A DNA stretch of 64,000 bases, from contig OZ245056.1 in assembly GCA_965224705.1 (NCBI GenBank), positions 576,001 through 640,000 on the forward strand. Reading direction: 5' to 3'. Below are positions 36,001 to 54,000 of the stretch, piece after piece. Origin of the DNA: Spirochaetaceae bacterium. GTDB lineage: Bacteria > Spirochaetota > Spirochaetia > DSM-2461. A program made the position numbers. Every line of letters begins with the position of its first letter. Within the stretch, counting starts at the first letter, position 1.

Positions 36001-39000
36001 GTTTCCTCCAATTGATAAGATTGCACAAATAGACTCCAGAAACAAGTGCATGACTCATTCCAGGAACTTGACCAAAGTATCAGATAGGGACATGATGTAC
36101 AGGTTATAAACAGGTAAAAAGGAATATCATGTACCATAAAAAAATAGAGAAGCGTGTCGTTATTACAGGATTGGGAACAATTAATCCGATTGCCAACGAT
36201 GTTGAAAGCTACTGGGAAGGTCTGAAGGCCGGTCGATCGGGTATCCGTCGAATCCAGCATGTTAATCTTGACAAATATCATATACATATCGGCGGTGAGG
36301 TTGATTTCCCCGATAATCTGAGATCCTACTTCAAACAGCCTAAGATGATTAAGAGGCTGGACCGCAACATAATTTATGCGCAGGTGGCAGGCATGCAGGC
36401 TCTCCGTGATTCCGGGATAACTGCCGAAGATATGGCCTTTAGATGCGGTGTCGTAATAGGAACGGGCTCCGGGGGTATTCGTGCCCACCAGATAAACCTG
36501 GACCGTGTACATGACGGTAATCTATACGAAGTTTCACCATTCTATCTGATCAGTGCAATTCCAAGCACAGCTACAAGTTATTTTGCTAAAGAAGCAGGAC
36601 TCAAAGGACCCATTTTCTCAATAAATTCAGCCTGTGCCTCGGGAAATCATACATTCGGAGTCGCCTCCATGCTGATCAAGGCAGGTATGGCTGACATAAT
36701 CTTTGCCGGTGGTACAGAATCAGCAGTCAACCACCCGGGAATTATTGCATTTGGAAATATATCGGCTTTATCGACTCGAAATGATGAGCCTCAAAAGGCC
36801 AGTCGTCCCTTTGATGTTGACAGGGATGGCTGTGTACTGGGTGACGGTGCTGGCGTCCTCTGCCTGGAAGAACTGGAACATGCCAGATCCCGAGGTGCCA
36901 GAATCTACGGCGAACTGACAGGATATGGATTTACCAGTGATGCAAGTGATCTGGTTGCCCCCCACCCGGAAGCCGAGGGTTCAACTCGGGCGATCCACTC
37001 AGCTCTGGAAATGGCCGGGCTGCAAACTTCCGATATCGGGCTTATTAACGCTCATGGAACTTCTACGCCAATCGGCGATTCACTGGAAGCCCTGGGGATT
37101 CAAAAAGTATTTAAAGAAAGAAGCTCTGAAATTCCTGTTCACAGCACCAAATCAATGGTTGGTCATCTTCTTGGTGGTGCCAGTGCTGTAGAAGCCATTG
37201 CAGCACTCATGGTTTTCAATGAGAATACTGTCCATGCAACTGTGAACTATGATAATCCGGATCCCGATATAAACCTCAACATCGTTTCAGAAAACATGGA
37301 TGGTTCTCACATTGATCACATCCTTTCCAATGCCTTCGGATTCGGCGGAATGAACGCCTGTGTTGTTCTTTCACGCTATAAAGAGGAATGAGCATAAAGA
37401 AAAGCCCCTTACCCGGAACAATACCCCTTCGTTCAATGATACCGAAGAATTGAGTCCGGCCGGAAGCGCTGCTGCCTGCTCGGCTATGCCGCTGTGTATG
37501 CCCTCAGCGAATGAGATCTTGAAGGATGACGCAGACGATTCAAAGCTTTCTTCTCAATCTGTCTGATCCGTTCCTTGGTAAGTCCCAATATATCACCAAT
37601 CTCTTTCAATGAAAGAGAGCGGGTATCACCCAGCCCAAAACGGTATCTGATGACTTTTGCCTCTTTTTCAGACAGTGTTCCAAGCACATCATCAATCTCT
37701 TTAGTCAGCATTTTCCTGATGGCCTGCTCCTCAGGAGCAGCGGACAGAACATCTTCAATGAAATCACCAAGGTTGGATGTATCCTCTTTATCATAAACTG
37801 GTGTCTCAAGGGAAACCAGATCTCTGCTGATTGCCTGAAGAACCTTTACGTCTTCTTCCTTAATCCCGGTAATATTGGCGATGAAAGCATCGGAAGGTTG
37901 ATTCCCATATTCGGACAAATATGCTTTCTTGGTGTTTTTAATCTGTACAAGCTCATTGGCTCGATTCATTGGGAGCCGAATCATTCGGGATTTCTCATAA
38001 ATAGCTTTGAGAATGGCCTGGCGAATCCACCAGACAGCATACGAGATGAAGTGATATCCCTTATCAGGATCGTATCGGCTGATGGCATTCATTAATCCAA
38101 TATTTCCTTCACTGATAAGATCTTCCAGAGGTAAACCTTGATTTTGAAATTTCTTCGCTGTACTGACAACAAATCTCAAATTCGCCTCAATAAGCTTTAA
38201 TTGAGCATCTTTGCTGCCGGATGCGGCTGCACGAGCGATTATGTCCTCCTGCTCCCGTGTAAGCAGAGGAACTTCATTGATCTCCTTGAAATACAGAGAT
38301 AGATCATTATCTTTTTTCAACTGCATTATCATCTCCTGCCTGCAAACAAGCAAGAAACGGGCCAAATTTGAAGCTGTTCTATATATTTTATTATTCTATA
38401 ATAACTTATATTTTTTTCATCTGAACTATTTTACGGAGTAACGTCTCTGTTGTACTTTGAGAGTAGCGGGAATCCTTTAAATTGGGCCATTTCTACCCAT
38501 TTCAACTACACGGCTCACTAATTGAGTCATAATAACCCATGTCATGGGTTGATGACTCGAAATTGAGACATGGTAACCCGATTCTCAAGTCGTTGACAAA
38601 GTCAAATGGTACGTATGAATTTGGATTATCAGCGACAAAACCCGGGAACACAATGGTAGTACCCCAGTATAAGGTATCCCGTCCCTGACGGCTTAAGCAT
38701 TTCCATTGACTGGAATAACACAGCTCAACCCATGCATCAGTAATCATGCCCATCACAGCATCAAATTCGCAGCGGCCAGAGAAGCGTTTCTGGGGCCGTG
38801 ATGATAAATACCGATTCACCTGGATGTGTTGAAATCTCAGAATCTCCTCTTTAACATCCACAAATGTTTGTCTCCAAGTCTTGATACAAACAAGATAGTT
38901 ATGAATATAAGAAACGGCAATACTTTTTTATGCGATTGTTAATCCAATACTGTTACTTCCAGAAGTGCGGCTGTGGCGACTTTCCCACTCACAAGAACCT

Positions 39001-51000: not shown

Positions 51001-54000
51001 CCCTTCCAGTCGGAGAAACTGTTGCGGGAATGATCCGGCGGCCTTCCGCATCAAATGAAATGAAATTGAATGGTGACAGGGCAACTATGATTTCTGGTAT
51101 ATCCAGTATGGCATCAATTGTGTTTTGGAATTCCTGGAGGACCTTGAGATTATACAAATCATTGCCATAAATACTGATAAAGACAAAATTAGTGATTTCT
51201 TTCTCAATTCCCAGTTCCGTTCGTATTTTGTCTATCCGATCATTTTGTCTGGGTGTCAGATTGTTCACATCGGTATCGATACCTATATCTGCTGCTTTCC
51301 AGCCCATAAATACAGTGACCAATATCGTCAGGACTATAATGAGTTTCGAGTTTCTGAGAACGAATCGGATAAATTTCCTGATACTCAAAATTTATCTCAT
51401 TCTATTGATAACTCACGGAGTACTCCAGTGGTTCCGTAAGCATCAATACTGGCAGTAAGGGAATTCTGTATTTCACTGTATTCTTGTTGACTACATGGCC
51501 GCCTTTCTGGTCAATGATCTGCCCTTCTACCCGGATTGTCAGATCCAGCGAAGAGGATTGGATTCCTGCACGACTCACCTCGCCCAGAGCGAATTCCATC
51601 ATGTCGAGATATTCCTCTTCTGTCAGTCCTTCTGTGCTCGCTGGTCCAAACGTCTCGACAAGTGCGTTATTGAAGGATGGGTTTTCATCAAGCAGGGCTG
51701 TGATGGTTTTGCGGTTGAGCCTCACCGTTAATTTAGAAATACGCCCATCATTCTTCATCTGGACTATCTGACTCCCGGCGGAACCCGCTTCAATACTCTG
51801 AAGCAGTATGCTCGGATCCAGGAAAGTGAACTGTCCTGTTATCCTGTTCTGTGCCGGAGCTTCCAGGCTGACAAGGGTGATTCCCTCACGCTGCCGGAAA
51901 TCATTTTCAATAGCCTCCAGGTCAAAGAATGACAACTGATTTTCTGGTACACTGTCTCCGGGTTCCAGAAGCATCATGACCTGGGCAATCACCTCAGTCA
52001 GATAATCAGCAAGCTGAATATCGAAGCTTACCCTTCCATTGCCTGACTTCTCAATGTAAACATCCTGTTTCACAGCACAGGAAGCCGCCATAATGATGCT
52101 GAGCATCCCAATCAATACCGGGTTTACCATTATTCTCTTCAAAGCAACACCTCAAACAGGGTTTATAGAAAGCTCAACTCCTGTCTGCCCAGGCATCCAG
52201 TTTCCACGAGTACCACGTCGACATAGCAAAAAAACAAGCCGGAACCGCAATGGGTGCTTTCAGAGTTCCCCATCAAACTATAGTATAATGAAGAATAAAC
52301 AAAATGTCACGCCCTCTCTTGATGCTGCCCCCAGTGTCCGAAAGCTTGTAGAGATGAAACGGCGACAATTTCTACAAGGATAATATATTATGAATAAAGA
52401 AATTACAATGGTTTTCGATTGGCATGATCTTCTAACACTTAAAATGATTTTTTATCAAATCTTACCCGTAAACAGTGTAGGAACAACTATATCAAACAAA
52501 AACTCCTCCTTACCCAGGTACAGCGCAAACAGACATCTACAAGCTTCCTGACACTACAATCTGCTTGCAGAAACCTGAAATCCAGAACGAAATGCGGCTG
52601 CGGGAAAAGTCTCTGCATGATAACAGAAAAGATGAGAAAAGGCTTCTGCCAATGGCACACTTCAGTTTTCTAAAAACTGTTATGGACAAGGCTTTTGAAA
52701 CTGATGTATAATTAGCTATATAGTGAAGGATTATGATACATTGAACAAGGAAGCTATGTAATATATAATGAAATCACCCAACAATTGGCATAGATTAAAT
52801 CAGAATCATTTATTGCCAGATAGAATCAGCGAGATAATTGGCCGGATCGGGGAGCTTTATTCAAGCTACTTTGACCAGAATTGGTTCACGACCTTTTTAG
52901 GTGACTTCCCCATGACAACCGGACAGTTCTATGATATTCGCGCCTGCATATCGATAAGTGAACCTGTTCAAGCCGACATTCCGGTTATTCAAGAGGGTCT
53001 CAAATCCCTGAAAGTTTACATACAACTCCTGAAAGAAACCATTGTACCAGAAATCACAAACATCAGCAGCAGAAAAACTTCGAAGAGGAATATGGAAGCA
53101 ATGACCAGCGAATCCAGAACACGTACAGAAATCATTGCCTACCTTCTTCCCCTGAATCTTAATACACTGGAAGATCTGGTTAAGGAACTTGAAGAATCCC
53201 TGCCTAAGATGCCAGTTTCAAAGAAAAGAATTAACAGGATTGGACCACCTTTCAGACATTGACAGTGTTGTGCATAAGGCATACACCCCGGCCTTTGCGA
53301 AAACCGAGCATTTTCTCCACTTCTTCATCAGGTCATGGTCTCTTCAAGGTCGGCCAGAACCATGGATAACCCGATGTTTCCTAATGATAAGAGATCCTGT
53401 CGGCAGAGAATATGTAATCTCTTATCCTATCAGATATAATCCGGTGATAGAAACACCCGGTTCATTTAACAGGGAGTCTGTCGGACTTACGCCTCACGCC
53501 TCGATTTCTGTCCTTTTTTCCCGCTGCTGCGTTGCCAGAATACTCACGCAGCCCGGCTACACTTGAGTTTTTGTCGCCTTGCATCAGGAAAAAATCATCA
53601 AAAATCGCCTCGAAGTCTCAAAGTCCAACAGACTCCAGACTTTCTGACACTGCATATACCTCATAATCCGGTAGAAATTGAGTATTCGTTGTTTTACAGA
53701 ACACCGAAAATTTCCAGACACGGCTTTTTGAAACTGGATCAGCAGGCGATTTACATCCGCAGTGCTTCAGGTGCCCATAAGTAAGAACTGTAATTTTATC
53801 ATTGATATTTCTTATTTGAGAGATTAAATTACTACCTTATGCGACGTTATTCAGTTGTCATCGTTCTCTTGCATGCAGCCGTACTTCATCTCCAGGCCCT
53901 GCCTGCTCAACGAGGTTGGACTCTGTCTCCCAATGTGGGCCTCCATTGGGGAGAAGTACATGAAATTGTCTATTACCCTCCTACACTCCAATATCCTACA

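Follow-up and report, generated by a model that had tools for sequence, protein, structure and literature searches.

In a 64,000-nucleotide stretch of a Spirochaetaceae genome (the window, meaning all of the DNA analysed here), we identified a gene cluster that, judged from its sequences, on balance probably directs the synthesis of a sphingolipid-like N-acyl amino-lipid with a methyl branch, assembled on a carrier protein of its own. The initial annotation had predicted a branched ceramide-like lipid; this stands with respect to the AOS, the GNAT and the HMGS cassette, but no CerR lies within the window.

Twelve tightly packed ORFs on the minus strand (38939-51388) run in the order MMPL, GNAT, AT, KS, KR, HMGS, ECH1, ECH2, SDR, ACP, AOS and DH. 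All 12 co-directional genes described initially were found, and their domain assignments were reproduced using Pfam and NCBIfam profiles, the source of our domain calls for the window ORFs. Four neighbouring gene pairs overlap by 4 bases, HMGS and ECH1 overlap by 32 bases, and the remaining intergenic gaps measure 12-103 bases. Gene order is kept in more than 25 loci of other genomes, so the arrangement is not due to chance. A 13th co-directional ORF (51402-52142), which lies 13 bases upstream of the MMPL gene and matched no Pfam or NCBIfam profile, may open the operon. Many of the cluster genes are covered by contigs from RNA libraries, but since these may include carried-over DNA, the support is weak. 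The features are as follows.

51402..52142, minus strand: lipoprotein-like ORF, 246 aa, signal peptide with Cys; its nearest neighbours among Atlas clusters are hypothetical proteins or lipoproteins of Spirochaetota
49085..51388, minus strand: MMPL/HAE3-type RND membrane transporter (PF03176, 2e-27)
47854..48981, minus strand: YghO-family GNAT N-acyltransferase (36% full-length identity to E. coli YghO)
46859..47812, minus strand: FabD-type malonyl-CoA:ACP acyltransferase, AT (TIGR00128 fabD, 241 bits; cut-off 260.9)
45576..46862, minus strand: KS, PksF-like, Cys-His-His intact (NF005490, 314 bits)
44839..45579, minus strand: KR, FabG-like 3-oxoacyl-ACP reductase (TIGR01830, 224 bits; cut-off 297.75)
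43568..44797, minus strand: HMG-ACP synthase-like HMGS (PDB matches PksG 4yxq and CurD 5kp5)
42733..43599, minus strand: ECH1-type crotonase, proposed HMG-ACP dehydratase (PF00378)
41984..42736, minus strand: ECH2-type crotonase, proposed PksI-like decarboxylase (NF005496, PRK07110)
41129..41971, minus strand: SDR, FabI/FabL-like enoyl-ACP reductase (PDB matches, Y-x6-K)
40875..41132, minus strand: dedicated ACP (PF00550, 3.4e-10)
39523..40782, minus strand: AOS, PLP-dependent, 'SYNYLG' subfamily, proposed SPT-like condensing enzyme (PDB match SPT 3a2b)
38939..39469, minus strand: DH, FabZ-like 3-hydroxyacyl-ACP dehydratase (PF07977, 3.4e-16)
36129..37391, plus strand: KS2, FabF-like second ketosynthase, convergent to the operon (fabF, 464.6 bits; cut-off 493.75)

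Conservation of a nine-gene module

The genes KS-KR-HMGS-ECH1-ECH2-SDR-ACP-AOS-DH, of which DH is the last, form a conserved module found in 12/12 loci of other Spirochaetota classes, counting those whose contig extends past ECH2; 7 more loci are cut by contig ends. The 12 genes had been regarded as one unit, which holds for these nine, whereas AT, GNAT and MMPL are joined to the module only within the window's own order. Catalytic motifs are kept across module orthologues. The module is present in 12 of the 38 genomes of the order and, among the 300 other genomes in the phylum sample, in 19; a spirochaete symbiont of a gutless worm and named MAGs of Spirochaetaceae and Spirochaetales carry it as well. 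Such patchy occurrence is as expected for an accessory product. Counting against the branched-sphingolipid scheme, which does not explain it, a five-gene KR-HMGS-ECH1-ECH2-ACP cassette without KS, reductase or AOS occurs in 10 other spirochaete genomes of the phylum sample.

AOS, GNAT and MMPL

No other module gene is as well conserved as the AOS, which shows 63-71% identity across classes and lies between ACP and DH in 12/12 loci. Its best PDB matches, SPT 3a2b/8guh (4e-77) ahead of AONS/KBL 8s1y (1.1e-70) and CFAT 28eh (1.8e-53), follow the ranking reported initially. The protein falls below every NCBIfam equivalog cut-off, scoring 325.6 (cut-off 640), 276 (500) and 246.4 (670) on curated SPT models and about equally on BioF/Kbl models. 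The His, Asp-x-x-His, Lys and Arg motifs are conserved, and a GT[LF]SKS motif is close to the SPT-characteristic GTFSKS (PMC10196870). In the active site, Tyr replaces Asn52 of S. multivorum SPT, a residue that helps hold the serine hydroxyl, and the neighbouring loop differs too. We assign the AOS to a distinct 'SYNYLG' subfamily. Its clade (30 rows, SH-aLRT 99) is sister (99) to a Verrucomicrobia AOS clade, whose genes adjoin a GNAT of the same family (AOS then GNAT) in 21 of 24 loci; one of these, annotated with Pfam, comprises an FA hydroxylase, AOS, CDP-alcohol transferase, GNAT and a further CDP-alcohol transferase. YghO-type GNATs also stand beside CFB-type SPT-like genes in 9/20 loci, with extended-SDR reductases sometimes present. 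This recurrent pairing supports the proposal that an AOS with a YghO-type GNAT is a ceramide-type signature. Elsewhere, the genome carries a capnine/sulfonolipid-type locus.

The GNAT is a single-copy gene. Along its full length it shares 36% identity with E. coli K-12 YghO (E = 2e-77), reproducing the similarity first noted, and also 36% with the GNAT of a Verrucomicrobia sphingolipid-like cluster. Among the genomes of the window's order, orthologues of at least 41% identity are found in 8 of the 11 others with the module and in 0 of the 26 without it; in G276, a GNAT and an extended-SDR reductase lie divergently upstream of the module. Counting against linkage, the GNAT adjoins the module in 1/12 loci of other classes, and in two genomes (G020 and G058) the closest GNAT lies instead 3 kb away from a CFB-type SPT-like gene distinct from the module. 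Moreover, 121/301 genomes of the phylum have YghO-type GNATs, so this family is common and not specific to the module system. We propose that the GNAT is a bCerS-like N-acylase of an amino-lipid.

The MMPL protein scores 205 bits on TIGR00921 HAE3 (cut-off 351.9) and 105.7 bits on an HpnN-like model. As an exporter within the unit, it is indeed a co-directional operon gene, and it adjoins the cluster in a relative with 96% AOS identity (L046), but no close orthologue was found in the other module-bearing genomes searched (≤25% identity). Relatives in the phylum sample reach at most 29% identity. A role as lipid exporter is proposed.

Beta-branching cassette and elongation set

The best full-length PDB matches of HMGS are PksG (4yxq, 226.5 bits) and CurD (5kp5, 225.5 bits), with HMG-CoA synthases trailing at no more than 208 bits, which agrees with its annotation as an ACP-dependent HMG-ACP synthase. 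Among orthologues, the motif Glu is kept in 31/31, the His in 30/31 and the Cys in 28/31 sequences. ECH2 scores 234.4 bits against the PksI-type model NF005496 (PRK07110), above the cut-off of 215, in keeping with the beta-branching role assigned to it. For ECH1, the best NCBIfam model is NF005498 (PRK07112), at 149.8 bits below the cut-off of 250; its place between HMGS and ECH2 is conserved across loci. The KS, 55-62% identical in other classes, scores 314 bits on NF005490 (polyketide beta-ketoacyl-ACP synthase) versus 282 bits on fabF, and its Cys motif G[GA]ACASG is present in 26/26 sequences, the window counted. Its Cys-His-His triad was confirmed; the conclusion once drawn from it, that the KS condenses rather than decarboxylates, does not follow, since an intact triad does not exclude a decarboxylating role. 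Two features count against the branched-sphingolipid scheme: the KS is not of the condensation-dead type, and a single ACP stands in place of the usual donor/acceptor pair.

The KR, directly upstream of HMGS in every locus compared, has its Y-x3-K motif in all 28 sequences counted. The ten best PDB matches of the SDR are all enoyl-ACP reductases (best 1ulu, 4e-18), its Y-x6-K aligns onto that of FabI, and most orthologues share a Y[DE][FY]VAASK motif. A CerR-type identity for the SDR was rejected on these FabI-like matches and the Y-x6-K, CerR being described as NDUFA9-like (PMC11087976). The cluster therefore holds two, not three, of the ceramide-synthesis enzymes credited to it. No CerR-type reductase was found in the window; the only extended SDRs in the whole genome are two unlinked HpnA-like ones, which share about 25% identity with the candidate reductase of G276.

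FabZ models score 81-86 bits on DH, below their cut-offs, and its GHFPxxPxxPG motif is conserved. The module ACP, one of six PP-binding ORFs in the genome, is 67-74% identical in other classes. KS2 shares 51% identity with the KS that in locus L019 lies convergent to the module, versus 43% for the housekeeping FabF; orthologues lie beside the module in many loci, and KS2 is the probable elongating KS of the system. SDR, KR, DH, KS and ACP make up a complete reducing cycle, duplicating the housekeeping FabH-FabG-FabF-FabZ-FabV locus at 2.234-2.238 Mb. The KR, KS, DH and AT had been taken for a beta-branching set; they are present, but with the FabI-like reductase and ACP they constitute a full type II elongation set, more than beta-branching accessories. 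No second FabD-type AT was found in the genome by family search and tblastn. As the genome's only FabD, the cluster AT may be shared with housekeeping fatty acid synthesis.

Proposed route, alternatives and known systems

In the route that we propose, the FabD-type AT would load malonate onto the module ACP, and the PksF-like KS, aided by the FabF-like KS2, would provide acetyl-ACP and acetoacetyl-ACP, the latter a known HMGS acceptor in the case of CurD (PMC11522927). HMGS would add acetate at the beta-keto group, dehydration by ECH1 and decarboxylation by ECH2 would give 3-methylcrotonyl-ACP, and the FabI-like reductase would saturate this to isovaleryl-ACP. We favour such an iso-primer, built solely from acetate, over a beta-methyl branch introduced in a later round. 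Following elongation by KS/KS2, KR, the FabZ-like DH and the reductase, the AOS would carry out a decarboxylative condensation of the chain with an amino acid (most likely L-serine), freeing it as a branched 3-keto long-chain base; PfSgaAB offers a precedent for an SPT-like AOS fed by a dedicated synthase (PMC12134224). The YghO/bCerS-type GNAT would N-acylate this base, and MMPL may carry the lipid towards the outer membrane. Reduction of the 3-keto group would fall to an unlinked enzyme, or may not take place.

The same enzymes could instead make a small or medium-chain N-acylated amino-ketone or amine in a CqsA/LqsA-type or polyketide-alkaloid manner, exported by MMPL as a diffusible signal or secondary metabolite, with no membrane sphingolipid. 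This is possible but unlikely. The module is accessory and patchy (12/38 in the order; 19/300 other phylum genomes), the AOS stays below all SPT cut-offs and its amino-acid pocket is altered, the window has no CerR or headgroup genes, and HMGS cassettes have otherwise been described for polyketide natural products (PMC11522927). However, most loci pair the module with a FabF-like elongating KS2, among the close AOS models the autoinducer-synthase one gives the lowest score (189.7 versus a cut-off of 428), the sister AOS clade adjoins GNATs and has lipid-modifying genes in its annotated locus, and the GNAT and MMPL suggest a lipid. Rather doubtful, too, is a variant of our explanation in which the HMGS cassette acts late, placing a beta-methyl branch near the head of a sphingolipid-type long-chain base and not at an iso terminus. 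Polyketide cassettes usually work on a growing beta-ketoacyl chain (PMC11522927), and the housekeeping FabH could already prime with branched starters; yet a short primer route is the simpler match to the order HMGS-ECH1-ECH2-reductase and to the single ACP, and the sequences leave the time of branching unfixed.

We consider it very unlikely that the main role of HMGS and the type II genes is to provide ordinary membrane fatty acids with iso-branched primers or chains, with the AOS and GNAT as separate neighbours. At least one gene would serve bulk fatty acid synthesis, as the cluster AT is the only FabD, and the AOS-less KR-HMGS-ECH1-ECH2-ACP cassette exists in 10 other phylum-sample genomes, but the strong conservation of the AOS (63-71%), its position between ACP and DH in 12/12 loci and the complete housekeeping FAS locus elsewhere argue otherwise. 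A BioF-like or Kbl-like AOS of cofactor or amino-acid metabolism, already unlikely, is hardly credible: the bioF (329 bits) and BioF/Kbl subfamily (349.5) scores are close to the SPT scores, but all are below their cut-offs, BioB was not found in the genome (22.5 bits versus a cut-off of 225), and a genuine Kbl (628 bits) lies beside Tdh elsewhere.

As a route to a branched sphingolipid-like lipid, the cluster resembles the Caulobacter-type ceramide pathway, ordered Spt, bCerS, CerR (PMC11087976), in uniting a PLP-dependent AOS, its own ACP and a YghO/bCerS-family GNAT, a pairing seen in several phyla. Unlike that pathway as described, it has neither a CerR-type (NDUFA9-like) reductase nor an acyl-ACP synthetase, a type II synthase equipped with an HMGS cassette would assemble its acyl-ACP in situ, and its AOS is a separate subfamily below SPT cut-offs. 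In PfSgaAB of Pseudomonas fluorescens MYb115, an iterative type I PKS and an AOS with SPT activity, a dedicated synthase likewise passes its chain to an SPT-like AOS, giving sphinganine-type bases off the canonical route (PMC12134224); the spirochaete synthase, from another phylum, consists of discrete type II proteins with HMGS, ECH1 and ECH2, plus a GNAT.

Like the PKS beta-branching cassettes (PksF/G/H/I with AcpK; CurB-F), the cluster has an HMGS near PksG/CurD, a PksI-type ECH2, a PksF-like KS, an AT and an ACP. It differs in the absence of a PKS megasynthase, its single ACP, the KS Cys kept in 26/26 sequences, and the setting of the cassette among reducing enzymes of fatty-acid type, with an AOS at the end of the set. 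The myxobacterial alternative isovaleryl-CoA route from HMG-CoA (MvaS, LiuC, AibA/B and AibC) shares the logic of acetate units passing through HMG, methylglutaconyl and dimethylacrylyl to an isovaleryl starter for iso-branched lipids. It uses CoA thioesters and an unrelated decarboxylase and reductase, whereas the route proposed here would use ACP, crotonase-type enzymes and a FabI-like reductase. The capnine/sulfonolipid pathway (cysteate synthase and cysteate-C-fatty acyltransferase) is also a sphingolipid-like AOS pathway, but the window AOS matches CFAT weakly (1.8e-53 versus 4e-77 for SPT) and is not beside a cysteate synthase.

One operon thus unites a fatty-acid-building set, a methyl-branching cassette and the enzymes for the first two steps of ceramide synthesis in bacteria; if our reading is true, the predicted branched sphingolipid-like lipid would be undescribed.

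Gene content and layout of the cluster

The 3.0-Mb genome is a single contig. Twelve minus-strand ORFs span window positions 38939-51388, with gaps of 12-103 bases or with overlaps (4 bases in four cases and 32 bases between HMGS and ECH1).

Genes of the cluster, in order from MMPL to DH, and the adjoining ORF. Assignments of the twelve cluster genes are from Pfam and NCBIfam models.
minus strand: MMPL, MMPL/HAE3 RND transporter
minus strand: GNAT, 375 aa
46859-47812, minus strand: AT, FabD-type acyltransferase
minus strand: KS, ketosynthase; top model PksF-type NF005490, 314 bits against a cut-off of 445
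minus strand: KR, FabG-like ketoreductase
minus strand: HMGS, HMG synthase
minus strand: ECH1, crotonase fold
minus strand: ECH2, crotonase fold; passes PksI-type NF005496, 234.4 bits against a cut-off of 215
41129-41971, minus strand: SDR
minus strand: ACP
39523-40782, minus strand: AOS, alpha-oxoamine synthase
minus strand: DH, FabZ-like dehydratase
51402-52142: lipoprotein-like ORF, 246 aa, upstream of MMPL at a distance of 13 bases

Scanning 36000-53500 returned 40 promoter-like sites (32.9 +/- 5.4 expected) and 21 terminator-like sites (14.6 +/- 3.9 expected), both uninformative for operon boundaries. The Protein Atlas clusters nearest to the lipoprotein-like ORF are hypothetical proteins or lipoproteins of Spirochaetota. 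Further along, thrS (54903-56627) has immediately upstream of it an ORF (53839-54861) that resembles omptin-family outer-membrane proteases (PF01278, 9.4e-13). On the other side of the cluster, the interval 37484-38861, between DH and a plus-strand FabF-like ketosynthase (KS2), holds an ORF of 119 aa that matches no known family and the gene for an RpoD-like sigma factor of 293 aa. Two related loci (L046 and L049) carry the same pair at this position, and in other classes an Sfp-type PPTase occupies the interval instead; in the window's genome the Sfp-type PPTase gene sits beside panB (L129:2620-3300).

AT, KS, KR, DH, an enoyl reductase and ACP are all encoded in the cluster as discrete proteins, forming a type II elongation set. 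The initial annotation had taken the SDR (g00539) for the CerR-type reductase of ceramide synthesis. This assignment did not hold: among solved structures the SDR most resembles FabI enoyl-ACP reductases, and its Y-x6-K motif aligns with that of FabI, whereas CerR is NDUFA9-like (PMC11087976, in the portion available). Judged from sequence, KS, KR, DH, ACP and this FabI-like reductase would together make up a full reducing elongation set. All elongation and cassette proteins except the PksI-type ECH2 score below the NCBIfam equivalog cut-offs, which marks them as paralogues of the housekeeping fatty-acid set. A housekeeping FabH-FabG-FabF-FabZ-FabV locus was located at 2233936-2238389 of the contig (G000:C1). 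It contains no FabD, and the cluster AT is the sole FabD-type gene in the 3.0-Mb genome.

The top full-length PDB matches of HMGS were PksG and CurD, its Glu/Cys/His catalytic motifs are present, and the enzyme probably acts ACP-dependently. ECH1 reached 149.8 bits on NF005498 (cut-off 250); the order and adjacency of ECH1 and ECH2 are conserved across loci.

Conservation of the module and its upstream genes

Using a sample of 301 Spirochaetota genomes, we found HMGS orthologues at 55-60% identity in 19 genomes besides the window's own. Among the 19 loci fetched, 7 broke off at contig ends and were left out of the order counts; in all 12 loci whose contig extends past ECH2, the genes follow the order KS-KR-HMGS-ECH1-ECH2-SDR-ACP-AOS, and DH follows AOS in all 11 whose contig is long enough. 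AOS is the best conserved gene of this nine-gene module (63-71% identity). An Sfp-type PPTase comes after DH in all three annotated loci of the 12, and a FabF-like ketosynthase lies convergent to the module, or just upstream of it, in most loci; KS2 of the window (36129-37391, plus strand) is 51% identical to its counterpart in one of them (L019).

A more distant HMGS relative, at 35-38% identity to the window HMGS, was found in 10 further genomes of the sample. There it belongs to a minimal five-gene unit, KR-HMGS-ECH1-ECH2-ACP, which lacks KS, enoyl reductase and AOS (L023:3739-7700 in G175, and nine other genomes). This unit is a second type of HMGS cassette within Spirochaetota.

The genes upstream of KS are attached to the module in the window's own group. 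Two relatives share the order GNAT-AT-KS through to DH (L046, which also has MMPL, and L052), an Olavius spirochaete symbiont (L053) and a further locus (L107) have AT-KS and onward, and in L049 (G336) GNAT-AT-KS-KR stand as an inverted block some 10 kb from the module. In other classes GNAT, AT and MMPL do not adjoin the module, with the exception of one of the 12 loci (G276), where GNAT and an extended-SDR reductase lie divergently upstream. The module itself is split in G335 (L048), with HMGS to DH at 0.68 Mb and a GNAT of 62% identity at 1.89 Mb. In the Olavius algarvensis spirochete endosymbiont, the place of GNAT upstream of AT is taken by a protein with a 2-oxoacid_dh-type acyltransferase domain, with a classical SDR on the other strand (L053:1158-3013); these may be alternative N-acylase and keto-reductase genes.

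The cluster GNAT is 36% identical to E. coli K-12 YghO over its full length and is the genome's sole YghO-type GNAT. Against PDB sequences it gave no match below E = 0.08, and the Protein Atlas returned generic 'GNAT' clusters only. This YghO-family GNAT shares an operon with an Spt-like AOS, and at the family level the AOS-GNAT pairing recurs in other phyla. The GNAT family is common, occurring in 121 of the 301 genomes and in all 19 module genomes of the sample. The window's order comprises 38 genomes in one family, 12 of which, including the window's, carry the HMGS orthologue. Of the 11 other module-bearing genomes of the order, 8 have a GNAT orthologue with 41% identity or more (the remaining three are 73-88% complete), as do 0 of the 26 module-less ones, where relatives reach at most 36%; with genomes related to each other, these counts are descriptive only.

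MMPL has a plausible but weak link with the pathway. Across the phylum sample its relatives do not exceed 29% identity, and those in module-bearing genomes show 22-25%. GNAT and MMPL lie 4-6 kb apart in three genomes (G034, G139 and G216), and weak MMPL matches precede AOS in four Verrucomicrobia loci.

The alpha-oxoamine synthase and its relatives

Alignment to the serine palmitoyltransferases (SPTs) 3a2b and 8guh showed that AOS retains the fold-type I PLP features (catalytic His, Asp-x-x-His, Lys and a C-terminal Arg), and the catalytic motifs are conserved among orthologues. The PDB E-values of the initial annotation, which had ranked bacterial SPTs first, were reproduced exactly. AOS falls short of the curated SPT cut-offs (NF047600, 325.6 against 640; NF047599, 276 against 500; NF047603, 246.4 against 670) and of every other equivalog cut-off, with SPT and BioF/Kbl models scoring about equally. 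In contrast, the GNAT-neighbouring AOS proteins of two other genomes (G020 and G058) reach 588-608 bits on NF047600. In the substrate pocket, AOS has Tyr in place of Asn52 and Ala-Pro in place of Ser81-Arg82 of Sphingobacterium multivorum SPT; Asn52 forms a water bridge to the serine hydroxyl (PMC10196870, in the part available).

Three AOS genes were found in the genome: the cluster gene, Kbl and a CFAT-like gene. The genuine Kbl (628 bits) adjoins Tdh. The CFAT-like gene stands in a row with CysD, CysN/C and cysteate synthase (G000:C1 ~2384262-2389824; L045:5263-10825); the cysteate synthase scores 458.8 bits on TIGR03844 (cut-off 324.9), and among solved structures the CFAT-like AOS is closest to cysteate-C-fatty acyltransferase (28eh, 4.7e-96). 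The row resembles a capnine/sulfonolipid-type locus, here in a spirochaete. A BioF role for the cluster AOS is unlikely, as no BioB was found in the genome.

We placed AOS in a Kbl-rooted tree of 93 sequences, built under LG+G4 in 'quick' mode with SH-aLRT support only. The module AOS proteins group with two sequences from Bradymonadales in a 30-row clade (support 99), whose sister (support 99) consists of 24 Verrucomicrobia sequences; a YghO-type GNAT lies beside 21 of these 24 genes. An enclosing clade of 70 rows (support 99) shares the signature S-Y-N-Y-L-G, of which the Tyr sits where S. multivorum SPT has Asn52. Most CFB-type SPT-like genes, Kbl and the CFAT-like gene have S/A-N-x-Y-L-G at that place. 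A separate AOS clade of 20 rows, near the CFB-type SPT model in score, is paired with GNAT in 9 of 20 loci, some of its loci pair with extended-SDR reductases, and in G020 and G058 its members coexist with the module. On the basis of kinship and gene company, the cluster AOS appears Spt-like while lying outside the curated SPT families.

One Verrucomicrobia locus of the sister clade (L067) runs FA hydroxylase, AOS, CDP-alcohol transferase, GNAT, CDP-alcohol transferase, and its headgroup transferases hint, no more than indirectly, at a 1-OH derived from serine. The row (L067:9087-14885) and those of 20 other Verrucomicrobia loci, from Udaeobacter and Chthoniobacterales MAGs, may represent a phosphosphingolipid-like cluster built on the SYNYLG AOS subfamily. 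In G020 (L024:9313-17924) and G058 (L026), another row comprises a CFB-type SPT-like gene, a GGDEF protein, a gene of ~360 aa and a YghO-type GNAT, adjoined in G020 by LpxK, Kdo transferase and an LPG_synthase_TM gene. It is a canonical-looking second sphingolipid locus in genomes that carry the HMGS module as well.

A possible route to branched long-chain bases

Gene content, conserved motifs, synteny and phylogeny were observed; the route proposed from them is inferred throughout, in all its chemistry as well as in when branching occurs, how long the chain grows and which amino acid is used. KS, or the KSs, would turn malonyl-ACP into acetyl-ACP and acetoacetyl-ACP, from which HMGS, ECH1 and ECH2 would produce 3-methylcrotonyl-ACP. 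The FabI-like reductase would convert this to isovaleryl-ACP. The chain would then be elongated and condensed by AOS, probably with serine, and GNAT would N-acylate the AOS product.

Several observations stand against this scheme. Separate donor and acceptor ACPs were not found in the cluster, which has a single ACP gene; a further five PP-binding ORFs were located outside the cluster. In known HMGS cassettes, KS0 is condensation-incompetent and only decarboxylates malonyl-ACP (PMC11522927, in the portion available), whereas the cluster KS has an intact Cys-His-His triad and the Cys motif is kept in 26 of 26 sequences; the cluster KS does not fit this description of a KS0. CerR is missing: the window has no CerR-like (NDUFA9-like extended SDR) gene, the only candidates in the genome are two HpnA-like extended SDRs, both unlinked, and tblastn of the genome with the G276 extended-SDR candidate gave only ~25%-identity matches. 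Finally, the scheme leaves the minimal KR-HMGS-ECH1-ECH2-ACP cassette of other spirochaetes unaccounted for. Taking these points together with the evidence in favour, we lean slightly towards a branched sphingolipid-type reading of the cluster.

The stretch is present in DNA runs labelled mollusc metagenome and in four RNA-library runs of one study. In one of the latter (X5), 25 of the 30 bins of 36000-53500 are covered by contigs that match at 95% identity or more, including AOS, ACP, the reductase, ECH2, ECH1, HMGS, KS, AT and GNAT; uncovered bins, such as most of the MMPL gene, are no evidence of silence. The ACP/reductase junction, in X5, was the only one between genes that a contig spanned with 31 letters on either side. 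These contigs, in which DNA carry-over is possible, give only a hint that the cluster is transcribed.

In bacteria, sphingolipids affect the outer membrane and host signalling, and new producers continue to be added; to our knowledge, none have been described in spirochaetes. Our literature search returned no paper on sphingolipid genes in spirochaetes, nor any that couples sphingolipid synthesis with an HMGS cassette, and the main text of a study of Spt-like diversity (ISME J 2024; PMC11334938), in the portion available, does not mention spirochaetes. The closest known systems are the Caulobacter Spt/ACP/bCerS/CerR pathway, the HMGS cassettes of polyketide synthases and PfSgaAB, in which a type I PKS feeds an SPT-like AOS (PMC12134224, in part).

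More tentatively, and with somewhat less than even confidence, we propose that a whole Spirochaetota lineage, possibly with Bradymonadales, builds its iso-branched or beta-methyl long-chain bases solely from acetate, by means of a polyketide-style HMGS cassette that works on a private ACP and needs no primer derived from a branched amino acid. Lipids would then have a new route to branching, and spirochaetes their first described sphingolipid-type pathway; with no CerR linked to it, the pathway may end in a 3-keto ('oxidised') ceramide. Given the mollusc-metagenome DNA and RNA contigs and the gutless-worm symbiont among the relatives, the lipid could matter at the host interface. If true, long-chain bases would be supplied in a new way, by a type II synthase of discrete proteins that includes an HMGS branching cassette, and beta-branching chemistry would for the first time be used beyond polyketide natural products, in the synthesis of membrane lipids.
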